Shown: one piece after another, positions 1,986 to 7,761 of the stretch
Position numbering within the stretch: position 1 is the stretch's first letter
How the letters are laid out: each line of letters starts with the position of its first letter
Source of the DNA: a virus
Taxonomy: Duplodnaviria > Heunggongvirae > Uroviricota > Caudoviricetes
DNA: 7,761 nt
Strand: one strand, 5' to 3'
IMG/VR virus record: IMGVR_UViG_2869965101_000010
The notes under the pieces: generated by a model
Seen by the model: the letters and a program-made list of their open reading frames with translations, nothing else
What the model was told of the DNA's origin: nothing
Database searches by the model: none
Position numbers and translations under genes: made by a program

Positions 1986-2324
1986 CTATTTCCCTGAATT
2001 TACGACGAAACTGTTCGAGCGGACTGAAGCATTCATGCTCATAACCTCCGCGGAGGTAGATAACCCGCTGTGTTTCCGGCTCCCAACGAATGACTCTGAC
2101 GGGCACTCCGTAGTGATCTTTGAACCAGCGGTTAACTTGTCGCAAAGGACTGTCTCCTTCTGCCGGTTGAAATCACCCACAGCCCACTCTGCAAAGCTGT
2201 GGGTTACAATTTCCCTGTCACCTGGTACATTCACTGCATAGCAATATTTCACCTTCGCTTTTCCACCCGGTACAGAAAGCGCAATCAGTTGCGAGCGACG
2301 GTAGTGTGTTGTTAAACTGTTCAT
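1986..2324 (-). CDS. hypothetical protein (112 aa), translationally coupled to the upstream CII-like gene
   Basis: ORF track 1986..2324 (-). Its ATG (2322..2324) overlaps the TGA of the upstream gene (2321..2323) as ATGA on the minus strand. GGAG lies about 10 nt upstream. No family recognised. Confidence 0.5.
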
Positions 2325-2890
2325 GCGTTAGTTTCTCCACAACCAGAAGCAATCGACGCCACGACGCCCGGAGCTGCACACTCGCGGGCGTCATTACTTT
2401 CTGAAATGCAAAAAATTTTGTAGACAAGTGCTGCATGCTCCTGCAGCTTCGAAATTGAGAGATACAGCTCGTCGTTAATTGCTGTCTTCTCATGCGGTTC
2501 CACTACACCGTCTTCGATTGCTGAACGAATCTGTTTTGAATAACTGCCGATCTGTTCAATGACTTCCAGCAGACGCTGGTTAATATCGGCGTTGTCCACA
2601 TCCTCGATGTCAGGAAGAGACACAAAGACGCCATTTGCAGACTGCGCCACAGCATCAGCAATGAAGTGAGTGCCACCAGCACGCTGTAAAACCATTGCCC
2701 ATCCCAGCGGGAAAATCTGATCGCCATCTGCACGAAGGCGGTTGAATAAAGCGTTTTCTGTTACATCGAGCCAGTCAGCCGCTTCAGCGTAACCACCCGG
2801 CAACTTTGCGATAGTTTTTCTGACAGCTTTCACGTACCACTCAGGCTGTTTTTCTATTTTCCAGTGATGCTTACCCACGATTAGCCTCAT
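2321..2890 (-). CDS. phage early regulator, CII/YdaT-like (position and HTH-like segment); 189 aa if the first ATG is used
   Basis: ORF track 2321..2890 (-), immediately downstream of the cro-like gene, in the position lambda cII occupies. HTH-like stretch ..[20 protein letters not shown].. No good Shine-Dalgarno before the ATG at 2890; an in-frame GTG four codons later is preceded by GAGG, so the true start is uncertain. Confidence 0.5.
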
Positions 2891-2921: not shown

Positions 2922-3122
2922 CTAATCTTTCGGATAGATATCCGGTCTTAAGTCAGATTTCGTAATTGCACCTGACGTGCATTGCTCAAGTTTTTTAGCC
3001 AGCACAAAACTGGCTTTTTTATAGCCATTGAAAACCAGCCGTAAGTAGCCTTGTGTTGAGCCAACTTTTCCGGCCAACTCACCCTGCTGTTCTTTGGTTA
3101 AAGAGTCCCAATACGCTTTCAT
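2922..3122 (-). CDS. Cro-like small HTH protein (66 aa), first gene of the leftward early operon
   Basis: In-frame ATG at 3120..3122 (MKAYWDSLTKEQQGELAGKVGSTQGYLRLVFNGYKKASFVLAKKLEQ...) preceded by a strong GGAGG Shine-Dalgarno (reverse complement of 3133..3137) at 10-nt spacing. Divergent from the repressor gene with operators in between. The longer 167-aa ORF in the track is probably an upstream over-extension. Confidence 0.7.
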   Translation of the reverse strand: MKAYWDSLTKEQQGELAGKVGSTQGYLRLVFNGYKKASFVLAKKLEQCTSGAITKSDLRPDIYPKD

Positions 3123-3124
3123 AC

Positions 3125-3149
3125 AATATGTACCTCCAGCGTACATATT
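3125..3149. promoter_or_regulatory. operator site 1: perfect 9-bp inverted repeat AATATGTAC-N7-GTACATATT
   Basis: Read directly from the sequence. Overlaps the cro-like Shine-Dalgarno and start region. Core TGTAC-N7-GTACA is shared with site 2. Confidence 0.65.
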
Positions 3150-3176
3150 ACATGATTGAAATGAACCTTCACGATA

Positions 3177-3197
3177 CTTGTACCTTAGCGGTACAAG
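3177..3197. promoter_or_regulatory. operator site 2: perfect 8-bp inverted repeat CTTGTACC-N5-GGTACAAG
   Basis: Read directly from the sequence; core TGTAC-N7-GTACA. Its left half overlaps a candidate -35 (TTGTAC 3178..3183) that sits 17 bp before a TTTAAT -10 (3201..3206), which would give a near-leaderless repressor transcript starting close to the ATG at 3213 (lambda PRM-like). Confidence 0.6.
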
Positions 3198-3212: not shown

Positions 3213-3887
3213 ATGAAAACAATCCATGACATCCGGCGGTCTAACGCCAGAAAACTGAGAGATGGTGTTGGCGGGAATTCTTCCTTTGCCACTATGATTG
3301 ATCGCGAGCCAACCCAGACCAGCAGGTTTATGGGAGATGGTGCTACTAAAAATATCGGTGACAGCATGGCACGACACATTGAAAAATGTTTCGACCTGCC
3401 TATCGGATGGCTCGATCAAGAACACCAGACAACGAACATCACAAAAAAACCTGATGTTTCAATCACTAACAAACAAATAACGTTAGTCCCTGTCATATCA
3501 TGGGTACAGGCCGGAGCATGGAAAGAAGTTGGCTATTCTGAGGTTGATTTGAGCACAGCAGAAACTTATCCCTGCCCTGTACCCTGTGGCGAAATGACTT
3601 ATATCTTGCGGGTGATTGGTGATTCAATGATTGATGAGTACCGTCCGGGAGACATGATTTTTGTTGATCCTGAAGTCCCTGCTTGCCACGGTGACGACGT
3701 TATTGCGTTGATGCACGATACAGGCGAAACCACCTTCAAGCGATTGATAGAAGATGGAACACAGCGTTATCTCAAAGCATTACACCCAAACTGGCCTGAG
3801 CCCTACATTAAGATTAACGGTAATTGCTCTATAATTGGCACTGTGATTTTCTCGGGAAAACCAAGAAGATACAAAATAAAGGCCTAA
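3213..3887 (+). CDS. CI/C2-family prophage repressor with LexA-like S24 autopeptidase domain (224 aa), apparently intact
   Basis: ORF track 3213..3887 (+). The C-terminal domain aligns by eye with P22 C2 and lambda CI (..VISWVQAGAWKEV.., ..RVIGDSM.., ..ETTFKRLIEDG.., ..KINGNCSIIGTVI..). Predicted Ala100-Gly101 cleavage site, Ser138 and Lys176 at canonical spacing (37 and 38 residues). The N-terminal ~70 aa is HTH-like. Confidence 0.85.
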   Translation: MKTIHDIRRSNARKLRDGVGGNSSFATMIDREPTQTSRFMGDGATKNIGDSMARHIEKCFDLPIGWLDQEHQTTNITKKPDVSITNKQITLVPVISWVQAGAWKEVGYSEVDLSTAETYPCPVPCGEMTYILRVIGDSMIDEYRPGDMIFVDPEVPACHGDDVIALMHDTGETTFKRLIEDGTQRYLKALHPNWPEPYIKINGNCSIIGTVIFSGKPRRYKIKA

Positions 3888-3898
3888 TCAATATTTAT

Positions 3899-3922
3899 GA
3901 ACCTGCTTCGGCAGGTTTTTTT
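3899..3922 (+). terminator. intrinsic (rho-independent) terminator downstream of the repressor gene
   Basis: Stem GAACCTGC / GCAGGTT with TTCG tetraloop, followed by a T-run (3916..3922), beginning 12 nt after the repressor stop codon. Confidence 0.65.
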
Positions 3923-3926
3923 ATAC

Positions 3927-3959
3927 TTGACAATGTACCCCATGGACACACAATGTACC
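3927..3959 (+). promoter_or_regulatory. candidate sigma70 promoter (PL-like) flanked by two operator-like direct repeats
   Basis: Consensus -35 TTGACA (3927..3932), 16-bp spacer, -10 CACAAT (3949..3954). A 10-bp perfect direct repeat ACAATGTACC at 3930..3939 and 3950..3959 contains the same TGTAC half-site as the two operators and overlaps the -35 and -10. Confidence 0.4.
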
Positions 3960-4059
3960 AAAACGAAACAACAAACAGGCAGGATGCCCACGAAGTAGCC
4001 GCCTGGGGCATATGAAGTCCAAGATGATTCGTTAGCAACAAAACGCCCATAGGACGCTT

Positions 4060-4068
4060 CGCTCTTTA
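4060..4068 (+). promoter_or_regulatory. boxA-like element CGCTCTTTA (extended CGCTCTTTAACAA)
   Basis: Exact match to the boxA consensus of lambdoid nut sites and rrn antiterminators as recalled, about 100 nt downstream of the PL-like promoter. No convincing boxB hairpin immediately 3' and no N-like ORF follows. Confidence 0.35.
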
Positions 4069-4376
4069 ACAATTTGAATATTTTCAGCGTCAATGATCTG
4101 TTTAGCTCCCTACAAGTAAATGTAGCGTAGCACCATGATAAATCCTGCTAGTGTTTAGTTAAAAATCGCGCGAGAGCAAGAACGATGTGAGGGCAGGCAA
4201 TACTGATAGTGTTATTGCTATTAGTTTATCAAAAATATTTAGACGACCCAGATGAATATTTTTAATACATACTCCCCCTAATTTAACAGGAGTAAATGTT
4301 GATGAATAACGAGACATCTATACTCAACAATTGTATGATATGAACAATTATATAACATAATGTAGGAAAAATAAAA

Positions 4377-4511
4377 ATGGATTGGCATGACCTTATATCA
4401 AAGGTAATTATCGGACTTGTTACAGGCTCAATCGCAGCTTACTTAACTGCGCGATATGCACTCGGCCGTTATTATAAAGAAAAATGGTGGGACAAAAGAA
4501 TAGATTTGTAG
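4377..4511 (+). CDS. small single-pass membrane peptide (44 aa as found); C-terminus defined by the IS1 junction
   Basis: ATG 4377 with AGGA Shine-Dalgarno 9 nt upstream. Translation MDWHDLISKVIIGLVTGSIAAYLTARYALGRYYKEKWWDKRIDL has one hydrophobic helix and a basic/aromatic tail. The stop TAG (4509..4511) uses G4511, the first base of IS1. Not in the supplied ORF track (under 60 aa). Confidence 0.4.
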   Translation: MDWHDLISKVIIGLVTGSIAAYLTARYALGRYYKEKWWDKRIDL

Positions 4512-4565
4512 GTGATGCTGCCAACTTACTGATTTAGTGTATGATGGTGTTTTTGAGGTGCTCCA

Positions 4566-4841
4566 GTGGCTTCTGTTTCTATCAGCTGTCCCTCCTGTTC
4601 AGCTACTGACGGGGTGGTGCGTAACGGCAAAAGCACTGCCGGACATCAGCGCTATCTCTGCTCTCACTGCCGTAAAACATGGCAACTGCAGTTCACTTAC
4701 ACCGCTTCTCAACCCGGTACGCACCAGAAAATTATTGATATGGCCATGAATGGCGTTGGATGCCGGGCAACTGCACGCATTATGGGCGTTAGCCTCAACA
4801 CGATTTTACGTCACTTAAAAAACTCAGGCCGCAGTCGGTAA
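4566..4841 (+). CDS. insA: IS1 InsA (91 aa)
   Basis: ORF track; [91 protein letters not shown] matches IS1 InsA (zinc-finger/HTH). Confidence 0.9.
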
Positions 4842-4885
4842 CCTCGCGCATACAGCCGGGCAGTGACGTCATCGTCTGCGCGGAA

Positions 4886-5263
4886 ATGGACGAACAGTGG
4901 GGATACGTCGGGGCTAAATCGCGCCAGCGCTGGCTGTTTTACGCGTATGACAGGCTCCGGAAGACGGTTGTTGCGCACGTATTCGGTGAACGCACTATGG
5001 CGACGCTGGGGCGTCTTATGAGCTTGCTGTCACCCTTTGACGTGGTGATATGGATGACGGATGGCTGGCCACTGTATGAATCCCGCCTGAAGGGAAAGCT
5101 GCACGTAATCAGCAAGCGATATACGCAGCGAATTGAGCGGCATAACCTGAATCTGAGGCAGCACCTGGCACGGCTGGGACGGAAGTCGCTGTCGTTCTCA
5201 AAATCGGTGGAGCTGCATGACAAAGTCATCGGGCATTATCTGAACATAAAACACTATCAATAA
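4886..5263 (+). CDS. insB: IS1 InsB (normally expressed as the InsAB' transframe fusion)
   Basis: ORF track 4886..5263, [46 protein letters not shown]...; matches IS1 InsB. Confidence 0.9.
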
Positions 5264-5278
5264 GTTGGAGTCATTACC

Positions 5279-5611
5279 CAGACGGCGTACCACACAGGAA
5301 AAGATCGCAATTGTTCAGCAGAGCTTTGAACCGGGGATGACGGTCTCCCTCGTTGCCCGGCAACATGGTGTAGCAGCCAGTTATTTCTCTGGCGTAAGCA
5401 ATACCAGGAAGGAAGTCTTACTGCTGTGGCCGCCGGAGAACAGGTTGTTCCTGCCTCTGAACTTGCTGCCGCCATGAAGCAGATTAAAGAACTCCAGCGC
5501 CTGCTCGGCAAGAAAACGATGGAAAATGAACTCCTCAAAGAAGCCGTTGAATATGGACGGGCAAAAAAGTGGATAGCGCACGCGCCCTTATTGCCCGGGG
5601 ATGGGGAGTAA
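5279..5611 (+). pseudogene. insC: IS2 insC remnant: first ~8 codons missing and an internal frameshift
   Basis: Track ORFs 5265..5477 (...[34 protein letters not shown] then out of frame) and 5426..5611 ([60 protein letters not shown]) are the two halves of InsC in different frames. Relative to canonical InsC (..[26 protein letters not shown].., from memory), about 4 nt (one CCAG unit) are missing near 5372. Confidence 0.7.
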
Positions 5612-6474
5612 GCTTAGTCAGCCGTTGTCTCCGGGTGTCGCGTGCGCAGTTGCACGTCATTCTCAGACGAACCGATGACTGGATGGATGGCCGCCGCAGT
5701 CGTCACACTGATGATACGGATGTGCTTCTCCGTATACACCATGTTATCGGAGAGCTGCCCACGTATGGTTATCGTCGGGTATGGGCGCTGCTTCGCAGAC
5801 AGGCAGAACTTGATGGTATGCCTGCGATCAATGCCAAACGTGTTTACCGGATCATGCGCCAGAATGCGCTGTTGCTTGAGCGAAAACCTGCTGTACCGCC
5901 ATCGAAACGGGCACATACAGGCAGAGTGGCCGTGAAAGAAAGCAATCAGCGATGGTGCTCTGACGGGTTCGAGTTCTGCTGTGATAACGGAGAGAGACTG
6001 CGTGTCACGTTCGCGCTGGACTGCTGTGATCGTGAGGCACTGCACTGGGCGGTGACTACCGGCGGCTTCAACAGTGAAACAGTACAGGACGTCATGCTGG
6101 GAGCGGTGGAACGCCGCTTCGGCAACGATCTTCCGTCGTCTCCAGTGGAGTGGCTGACGGATAATGGTTCATGCTACCGGGCTAATGAAACACGCCAGTT
6201 CGCCCGGATGTTGGGACTTGAACCGAAGAACACGGCGGTGCGGAGTCCGGAGAGTAACGGAATAGCAGAGAGCTTCGTGAAAACGATAAAGCGTGACTAC
6301 ATCAGTATCATGCCCAAACCAGACGGGTTAACGGCAGCAAAGAACCTTGCAGAGGCGTTCGAGCATTATAACGAATGGCATCCGCATAGTGCGCTGGGTT
6401 ATCGCTCGCCACGGGAATATCTGCGGCAGCGGGCTTGTAATGGGTTAAGTGATAACAGATGTCTGGAAATATAG
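5569..6474 (+). CDS. insD: IS2 transposase InsD (301 aa), intact reading frame
   Basis: ORF track 5569..6474; [34 protein letters not shown]... with DDE-type core (..WCSDGFEF.., ..WLTDNGSCY.., ..[19 protein letters not shown]..). Matches IS2 InsD as recalled. Confidence 0.9.
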
Positions 6475-6550
6475 GGGCAAATCCAATAATAAATCAACAT
6501 ATCATTTCACGCTCCGATTTTCTGTCGGAGGCGAAACTGCGGCTATTCAT

Positions 6551-7099: not shown

Positions 7100-7761
<662 letters not shown>

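Follow-up and report, generated by a model that had tools for sequence, protein, structure and literature searches.

Positions 3899-4510 of a 7,761-nucleotide stretch of viral DNA (IMG/VR record IMGVR_UViG_2869965101_000010; the whole stretch is called the window) were analysed by comparison with related phages and prophages. This interval, which follows a CI-type repressor gene, is the control region for the early-left operon in a lambdoid prophage that lacks N and is of the SfV/e14 type; it is equivalent to the left promoter and left operator (PL/OL). Just after its promoter we found a conserved, covarying three-way-junction leader RNA (plus strand, 3964-4039, with its helices at 3971-4032; hereafter the junction RNA), which is apparently undescribed. 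By analogy with the nut and put sites, we propose that the junction RNA is a cis-acting elongation-control leader, helped in about 20% of cases by a boxA that uses host Nus factors, and we put the probability of this reading at roughly 0.5. Early antitermination is a textbook trait of lambdoid phages, understood only for N/nut and for the rare put phages, and N is missing from many temperate phages and prophages of the Enterobacterales, among them serotype-converting Shigella phages, Salmonella ST64B and the K-12 prophage e14. An earlier note, made from the letters of this DNA, had offered three readings of the interval: an SOS-inducible toxic membrane peptide, an RNA-based or host-Nus-only antitermination leader, or a decayed N region. 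Its observation is confirmed and its interpretation partly supported; the second reading is the one favoured here, by way of a covarying RNA (3971-4032) that the note had not seen and whose function is inferred.

The DNA downstream of 19 repressor homologs (73-99% identical, from ~17 Enterobacterales genera) was aligned, and a block of ~65 nt just behind the promoter stood out from its flanks by much stronger conservation and carried compensatory changes. The main alignment comprised 108 sequences sampled from IMG/VR with a 19-nt core pattern (at least 120 matches), and the structure was defined from this alignment, its covariation, RNAalifold and a covariance model. A predicted three-way junction fits the 108 sequences. 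Helix P1 (3971-3975 with 4028-4032) has the consensus GCGAA/UUCGC, CCACC/GGUGG or GUCAUC/GAUGAC. P2 (3978-3980 with 3998-4000) pairs GGC with GCC and encloses the near-invariant loop AGGAYGCCCACGAAGUA; one G (4001) links it to P3 (4002-4006 with 4019-4023), which has five pairs of free sequence and the loop GGCRUAYGAANN, and an invariant AUGA (4024-4027) forms the junction. In this alignment 85.7% of the cells were paired, compared with 67.8% in shuffles and 21-42% with slid partners. Double-change cells numbered 311 against 100 expected, a count equalled in none of 500 shuffles, with compensatory changes at seven of the eight P1 pairs tested and at all five P3 pairs. RNAalifold independently recovered P1 and P3, the two helices with strong covariation.

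The invariance of the core in the first sample is partly by construction, because the sample was chosen with the 19-nt core pattern. A second sample was drawn by an IMG/VR scan anchored on another part of the element (at least 120 matches, 123 distinct sequences). Here 94% of the cells were paired, and the 19-mer core was exact in 76 of the 123 distinct sequences, with most of the others differing at few positions. P2 varied only from G-C to G.U (32 vs 32 in the second sample), which favours pairing in a plus-strand RNA. The copy in the window scored 84.5 bits with the covariance model, R1 (E=3e-26), and carries one mismatch in P1 (A3973.C4030) and one in P3 (C4003.A4022); an alternative P1 register, 3962-3967 with 4028-4033, pairs perfectly. 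Judged from these sequences, the block 3890-4081 is under clear purifying and compensatory selection as RNA.

Several other structures and coding possibilities were considered and rejected. A kissing loop or pseudoknot joining the loops of P2 (ACGCC) and P3 (GGCGU) was unsupported, the variable pair 22/48 being C.A in 65 of the 108 sequences. A hammerhead, another ribozyme or a K-turn did not agree with the AUGA junction, whose strands misfit by inspection, and had no Rfam match. A leader peptide within the element was discarded since the AUG of the P3 loop is ACG in one third of the sequences, and one starting from the invariant AUGA since the length of its open reading frame (ORF) varies from 2 to more than 15 codons, with no Shine-Dalgarno sequence. 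A permissive covariance scan against Rfam 15 (E<=1) matched no family to the window, and none at the element in 10 relatives; ARAGORN found no tRNA-like gene at the element. A literature search by sequence string, gene name and topic found no description of the junction RNA, although an earlier description is not fully excludable.

The control signals around the junction RNA agree with an early-left operon. The repressor gene (3213-3887, plus strand) is intact and encodes 224 aa, with an N-terminal DNA-binding part and a Peptidase_S24 autocleavage domain (Pfam E=9e-25). Its allele, YmfK/CohE-SfV cI, is common to the Shigella phages SfV and SfIV, Escherichia phage PhiR29 and YmfK of K-12 e14, and the homologs in SfV and SfIV are annotated as cI. 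The repressor transcript ends at an intrinsic terminator (3899-3925, plus strand), the hairpin GAACCTGCTTCGGCAGGTTT at 3899-3918, which begins 12 nt past the repressor stop and has an 8-bp stem, a loop of 4 and a T-run. The terminator is kept across genera and annotated in SfV as rho-independent; as predicted at 3899-3925, it shields the early-left promoter from read-through from the promoter for repressor maintenance (PRM). Right after it, as the earlier note had pointed out, stands a consensus -35 TTGACA (3927-3932), which together with a 16-nt spacer and the -10 CACAAT (3949-3954) makes up a PL-type promoter (3927-3954, plus strand) matching the sigma-70 consensus at 10 of 12 positions, compared with 11 of 12 in the intact relative.

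The right operator (OR) region between cI and cro (3129-3195) holds two 17-bp palindromes of the form TGTACC-N5-sGTACA (3129-3145 and 3179-3195), both with zero mismatches to TGTAC-N7-GTACA, and the SfV record labels this interval a putative operator region. The two repeat copies carrying the half-site TGTAC that had been reported near the promoter are real: the window contains two exact copies of ACAATGTACC and no third, at 3930-3939 and 3950-3959 (chance expectation 0.45 with <=1 mismatch), and the half-site TGTAC(C) at PL is the same as that of the OR palindromes. The OL operator lies over the promoter spacer and the -10 (3934-3959). Its left half, TGTACC (3934-3939), is intact; its right half (3945-3950) reads GACACA instead of the consensus GGTACA, a mismatch at two of six positions, with GATACA in the closest relatives, and an extra half-site copy is present at 3954-3959. 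Across genera (loci L009-L023), the same palindrome lies between -35 and -10 with the family consensus TTGACAATGTACC-N5-GGTACATAATGTACC. Overlapped by operator sequence of the OR type, the promoter is thus a putative repressor-controlled PL/OL. The family consensus for the -10 is CATAAT, so the CACAAT of the window carries a T-to-C change, and with both the right operator half and the -10 mutated, the promoter/operator copy of the window is decayed. The operator-flanked, PL-like promoter of the earlier note therefore stands as a PL/OL-equivalent frame but not as an intact copy. In locus L074 (6755-6794, minus strand), on an IMG/VR contig otherwise near-identical to the window, the 20-bp unit ACAATGTACCCCATGGACAC is tandemly duplicated, which adds an operator half-site and a -10 copy to the PL promoter.

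The sequence search for what follows this repressor allele, also proposed in the earlier note, divided the interval in two. Only the first ~190 bp (3890-4081, containing the terminator, promoter, leader and boxA) match other phages, at 88-93% identity, and homology to other phage leaders stops at ~4081. For the phages SfV, SfIV and PhiR29 the conservation of this block was put at 88-98%, and its features are more than chance. The remainder, 4082-4510, matched 16 E. coli genomes at 97.7% identity and had no match among phage sequences. With the interval as query, matches were obtained in 1,175 of 5,426 complete E. coli genomes.

The junction RNA itself is very widespread. It is present in SfV, SfII, SfIV, ST64B, phiNP, ZF40, mEp460, mEp237, YeP1, AH07 and others, and K-12 e14 carries a copy in unannotated DNA between ymfK and ymfJ. 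The sequences upstream of the element fall into at least 54 clusters. Among the 86 loci with a strong promoter (at least 9 of 12 sigma-70 positions), the -10 ends 13-16 nt before P1 in 67, which puts the beginning of the RNA no more than ~10 nt from the predicted +1. Upstream, on the same strand, a gene whose end lies 90-280 nt away encodes a CI-type repressor (HTH_3 in 46 of 63, Peptidase_S24 in 27 of 63), of many unrelated sequence types, and the records of ZF40, ST64B and mEp460 annotate the same arrangement. Downstream, at least 78 different contexts were seen. The first ORFs in 70 of these contexts belong to 51 PHROG families, including kil, exonuclease and many of unassigned function, and none of the 25 families listed among them carries an N antiterminator annotation. 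Sequences cease to be conserved beyond the outer edges of P1, and the ribosome-binding site of the next gene often lies 20-50 nt downstream of the element, in unrelated sequence. With dozens of promoters, immunity types and cargos around it, the element is therefore an autonomous early-left leader module independent of all three.

One copy of the element is found per genome. Partial or second copies were noted in L009 (4719-4787), L199 (3631-3693), L112 (reverse-strand offset 1596) and L022 (1922-1996); those in L199 and L112 are additional copies of the 3' half, and that in L022 is a weak second match (E=0.003). The leader of Klebsiella spallanzanii retains P3 and the 3' half only, directly behind the -10. 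A further conserved leader module, UAAACGUUCCGC-N7-GGCGAUAAGG, was observed in 33 loci (for example L032 10231-10255, L053 8986-9010 and L038 3594-3618), ~25 nt after the junction RNA in 25 and ~40 nt before it in 3. Farther along the early-left operons of mEp460, ST64B and an IMG/VR relative, upstream of yfdP-like genes, there are matches to the small-RNA family STnc100 (L153 3017-3219, L151 2850-2968 and L060 235-458) that remain below the Rfam threshold (35-40 bits, gathering score 47). In K-12 MG1655, the ymfK/ymfJ boundary (L210, about 4586-4760) is an intergenic region with the promoter and the junction RNA. A chromatin immunoprecipitation-microarray study of RNA polymerase lacking omega placed ymfK with the genes that gained most occupancy (32-fold) and the adjacent ymfJ with those that lost most (0.07), a contrast at this boundary that may be a coincidence.

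Behind the junction RNA lies a second module, on the plus strand at 4044-4072, formed by a small GC hairpin (4044-4056, weakened in the window) and an rrn-type boxA. The boxA that the earlier note had placed at about 4060 is an exact GCTCTTTAACAA at 4061-4072, 12 nt identical to the rrn core, and it satisfies the experimentally derived consensus for a functional boxA, GYTCTTTAANA, including the C at position 4. It is no orphan as had been thought: it belongs to a conserved unit (an A-run, GCGCCC-loop-GGACGC, UU and GCUCUUUAACAAUCUGG) which in 27 of 135 leaders (~20%) comes at a constant distance behind the junction RNA, and which is also found in a Limnobaculum relative whose leader has no junction RNA. 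In the window the boxA lies ~100 nt after the predicted start, outside any ORF, and is followed, as in the relative, by ~300 nt of untranslated AT-rich DNA, the transcript being a predicted one. The junction RNA and the boxA both fall within the first 110 bases of this predicted transcript. PhiR29_1 and SfIV annotate reverse-oriented genes right after the boxA leader. Opposite-strand ORFs covered a median of 76% of the next 600 nt where a boxA was present and 47% where it was not (p=0.004; n=12 vs 75 contexts), a statistic that is suggestive only. Host-Nus boxA complexes guard rRNA and CRISPR-array transcripts against Rho, and untranslated or antisense DNA after a boxA is the situation in which they do so.

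On the proposed elongation-control reading, transcription would start near 3961 after cleavage of the repressor, and the nascent junction RNA would fold and act in cis on the transcribing polymerase, as put does. The boxA, where present, would load NusB/NusE with NusA, NusG and SuhB, in the manner of rRNA operons and CRISPR arrays. The two elements would jointly yield an elongation complex resistant to Rho and to terminators, able to transcribe through morons that are untranslated or antisense as far as the distal early genes (yfdP/Q/R-type genes, xis and int). A stronger version, that the junction RNA is a second class of protein-independent processive antiterminator RNA in phages, unrelated to put, and the missing device of the N-less lambdoids, with an optional boxA that recruits host Nus factors and so widens the protection against Rho, is held more tentatively and at somewhat less than even odds.

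The closest counterparts are putL and putR of HK022 and putL of HK639. Acting in cis and needing no protein factor, the put RNA binds the zinc-binding domain of the RNA polymerase beta' subunit and suppresses both pausing and termination. As with these sites, the junction RNA is a structured RNA of ~65-70 nt transcribed immediately behind the early-left promoter in a lambdoid phage that lacks N, and it is a self-contained module with no partner protein encoded nearby and with one copy per genome, as in HK639. HK022 putL has been described as an RNA of ~70 nt directly downstream of PL that needs no protein factor. The two putL sites resemble each other but share no core with the junction RNA, from which the put core CGAACGGCGCG...UAAACCAUGCGUCGG is absent; moreover, put consists of two adjacent stems with a 5' pseudoknot or triplex, whereas in the junction RNA P1 closes a three-way junction. 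Model R1 did not match HK022 (L029) at E up to 10, and its sole match in HK639 (L154; 12785-12867, E=2.2) is away from the annotated putL. HK639 also has an annotated 'M3-like RNA' just downstream of a cII-like gene (37910-37969), unrelated to the junction RNA. A 2025 study of phage LLS, whose early-left operon resembles those of ST64B and phiNP, noted that N is absent and speculated on a put-like mechanism.

A number of observations weigh against elongation control. With no detectable similarity to put, the put analogy is one of position and context only. No compensatory double changes were seen in P2, the folds of single sequences lack significant stability, and the start site near 3961 is a predicted one. 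The association of boxA with antisense ORFs comes from mechanical ORF calls in 12 contexts, and the boxA of suhB promotes Rho termination instead of preventing it. In the 2.5 kb downstream of 94 leaders, sense-strand intrinsic terminators were not enriched (0.06 per locus under strict and 1.2 under lax settings) and were fewer than those on the antisense strand. This result thus does not support a need to overcome intrinsic terminators, and if antitermination is the function, Rho-dependent termination or the terminators of morons would be the likely targets.

These observations were also considered in terms of a negative or conditional cis-regulator, a riboswitch-like sensor or an attenuator that gates kil, xis, int and morons. 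Near-invariant loops and a near-invariant junction in a three-way junction are typical of aptamers that bind a ligand or factor, the element sits at the 5' end of an operon with potentially toxic products, and a boxA can act negatively, as at suhB. However, there is no conserved expression platform, neither a conserved terminator nor a helix sequestering a ribosome-binding site being found downstream; conservation ends at the 3' strand of P1 in a module swapped among at least 78 downstream contexts; and no known Rfam riboswitch class matches. We therefore regard such a regulator as unlikely. We think it equally unlikely that the element stabilises the 5' end, serves as a processing signal or gives rise upon induction to a trans-acting small RNA, on the model of P4 CI, P1 c4 or lambda PreS/LPR1. 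The 5'-terminal position and compact fold agree with such roles, phage leaders are known to yield processed regulatory RNAs (ST64B having a C4-type RNA elsewhere), and the conserved single-stranded loops could serve as seed regions. Yet in most contexts neither a terminator nor a conserved 3' end follows the element, a stabiliser would have no need of ~30 near-invariant unpaired nucleotides, ARAGORN reported no tRNA-like gene and Rfam no C4 or other small-RNA family at the site, and lambda LPR1 maps to tL2a, outside the leader.

The immunity RNAs of P4 (CI), P1-P7 (c4) and N15 (CA) are, like the junction RNA, structured RNAs in the leader of a phage early operon. The difference from the C4 type (Rfam C4, RF01695) is that no match is found at the junction-RNA site, whereas ST64B has a true C4 elsewhere, and no C4-type target repeats (equivalents of seqA/seqC or a1/b1) were seen. 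On the cro side of ST64B (L151 240-428, minus strand), the C4 antisense RNA (79.7 bits) is adjacent to an isrK RNA (64.3 bits), both strong Rfam matches, and the pair forms an RNA immunity module of the P1/P4 type in a phage that also has the junction RNA.

With nutL of lambda and P22 the leader has in common a boxA and its place on the map, close to the promoter of the early-left operon and downstream of cI. It differs in that its hairpin is 5' of boxA and not 3' as in nut. No boxB hairpin was found 3' of boxA: the sole conserved hairpin is the 5' one, and the window DNA after boxA is unrelated AT-rich moron. In contrast with lambda nutL, no N-family gene accompanies the junction-RNA leaders, and boxA is present in only ~20% of them. 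The lambda boxA is the weaker CGCUCUUA, and that of the window has the full rrn-type consensus. The order of hairpin and then boxA is that of the rrn leader (boxB-boxA-boxC), and, as with the boxA elements of rrn, CRISPR arrays and suhB, a perfect GYTCTTTAANA precedes a long untranslated or antisense stretch. Unlike those, the boxA of the window is located in a repressor-controlled phage early operon and coupled to an additional conserved RNA, and no boxC was identified.

The DNA behind boxA bears on the two remaining explanations. From 4082 to 4376 extends the AT-rich, untranslated upstream part of a moron cassette (plus strand), in which the GC content falls to 27-35%; AT-rich composition is typical of morons. 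The lack of an N-sized ORF that had been reported holds, there being no plus-strand ORF of at least 30 codons starting at 4016-4376. The mini-ORF (4296-4343, plus strand; 13 or 15 codons, depending on whether it starts with the ATG at 4302 or at 4296, with its stop at 4341-4343) has a GGAG Shine-Dalgarno sequence and precedes the moron gene by 33 nt. The ECONIH4 relative has an identical copy, and only 16 near-identical (97.7%) homologs exist. The 44-codon ORF (4377-4511, plus strand) begins with an N-terminal transmembrane helix, and its stop codon spans the junction with the insertion sequence IS1, which supplies the last base from its own first base. Both ORFs of the earlier note are thus present, and the module is indeed cut by IS1 (4511-5278), but the small membrane peptide is not what it seemed. 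The 44 codons are the truncated start of a gene for a hypothetical protein of 198 aa. Sixteen E. coli genomes carry this gene uninterrupted, among them ECONIH4 (WP_001764244.1). The protein has an N-terminal hydrophobic helix and belongs to PHROG 17948 (E=6e-95), of unassigned function; searches against Pfam and PADLOC gave no match, and the intact gene is followed by a hairpin and U-run, as judged by eye.

The idea that the cargo is a repressor-controlled, SOS-inducible toxic membrane peptide of 44 codons, preceded by a 13-codon leader ORF, had in its favour an ORF with a hydrophobic N-terminus after the promoter on the same strand, and the fact that morons beside repressor genes are often exclusion or toxin genes. 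It is largely wrong and very unlikely as an account of the interval, given that the ORF is the beginning of an IS1-interrupted 198-aa gene with its stop from IS1 and matches no toxin or defence family (Pfam, PADLOC, PHROG). That the untranslated stretch is a decayed N gene region, as the heavy degradation of the prophage might suggest (IS at 516-1672, 4511-5278, from 5279 and from 7108, and truncated integrase and lysozyme genes), is the least likely explanation of all. The viable phages SfV, SfIV and PhiR29_1 and intact prophages with the same repressor allele have the leader but no N ORF, 3890-4081 is selected as RNA, and 4082-4510 is a separate AT-rich moron cassette. An ordinary N gene in intact relatives, which the earlier note had named as evidence against its proposal, was found in none of SfV, SfIV, PhiR29_1, E. 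coli ECONIH4 and K-12 e14; these relatives share the architecture without N. With N absent from intact relatives and the 198-aa gene intact elsewhere, the decayed-N and toxic-peptide readings therefore fail.

The window as a whole is a badly eroded 7.8-kb piece of an SfV/e14-type prophage, as judged from its ORF list, Pfam matches and comparison with phages. An integrase fragment (1-504) is abutted by an IS3-family element (516-1672). The window also holds the N-terminus of a replication gene, a CII(CP76)-like gene (2321-2890, minus strand) and a cro-like gene (2922-3122, minus strand). The 768-bp IS1 (4511-5278, plus strand), with InsA/InsB ORFs and with its terminal repeats GGTGATGCTGCCAACTTACTGAT ... 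TCATTACC read in the sequence, is immediately succeeded by a 5'-truncated, frameshifted IS2 fragment (from 5279) in an IS-rich stretch (4511-6480). Holin and lysozyme remnants lie between this fragment and an IS3-family transposase (7108-7761, minus strand) that truncates the lysozyme gene. An IS density of this kind is typical of Shigella genomes. IS1 severs the early-left operon 450 bp downstream, inside the 198-aa moron gene, and the system in the window is a relic, its junction-RNA copy being mutated and having no remaining operon to control.

Taken together, a widespread, sharply bounded and covarying RNA without an Rfam entry occupies the exact nut/put position of N-less lambdoids, and it may explain how lambda-like phages without N avoid termination of RNA polymerase. 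If elongation control is its function, it would be a new RNA that reprogrammes RNA polymerase and a portable part for synthetic biology; if it serves another function, it would still be among the most conserved unannotated RNAs of E. coli prophages. The adjoining rrn-type boxA would bring host-Nus-only regulation, as in rRNA operons, suhB and CRISPR arrays, into phage early operons. Should the junction RNA represent a new antiterminator class, it would be the long-missing device of SfV, SfII/IV, ST64B, phiNP, ZF40, mEp460 and K-12 e14.

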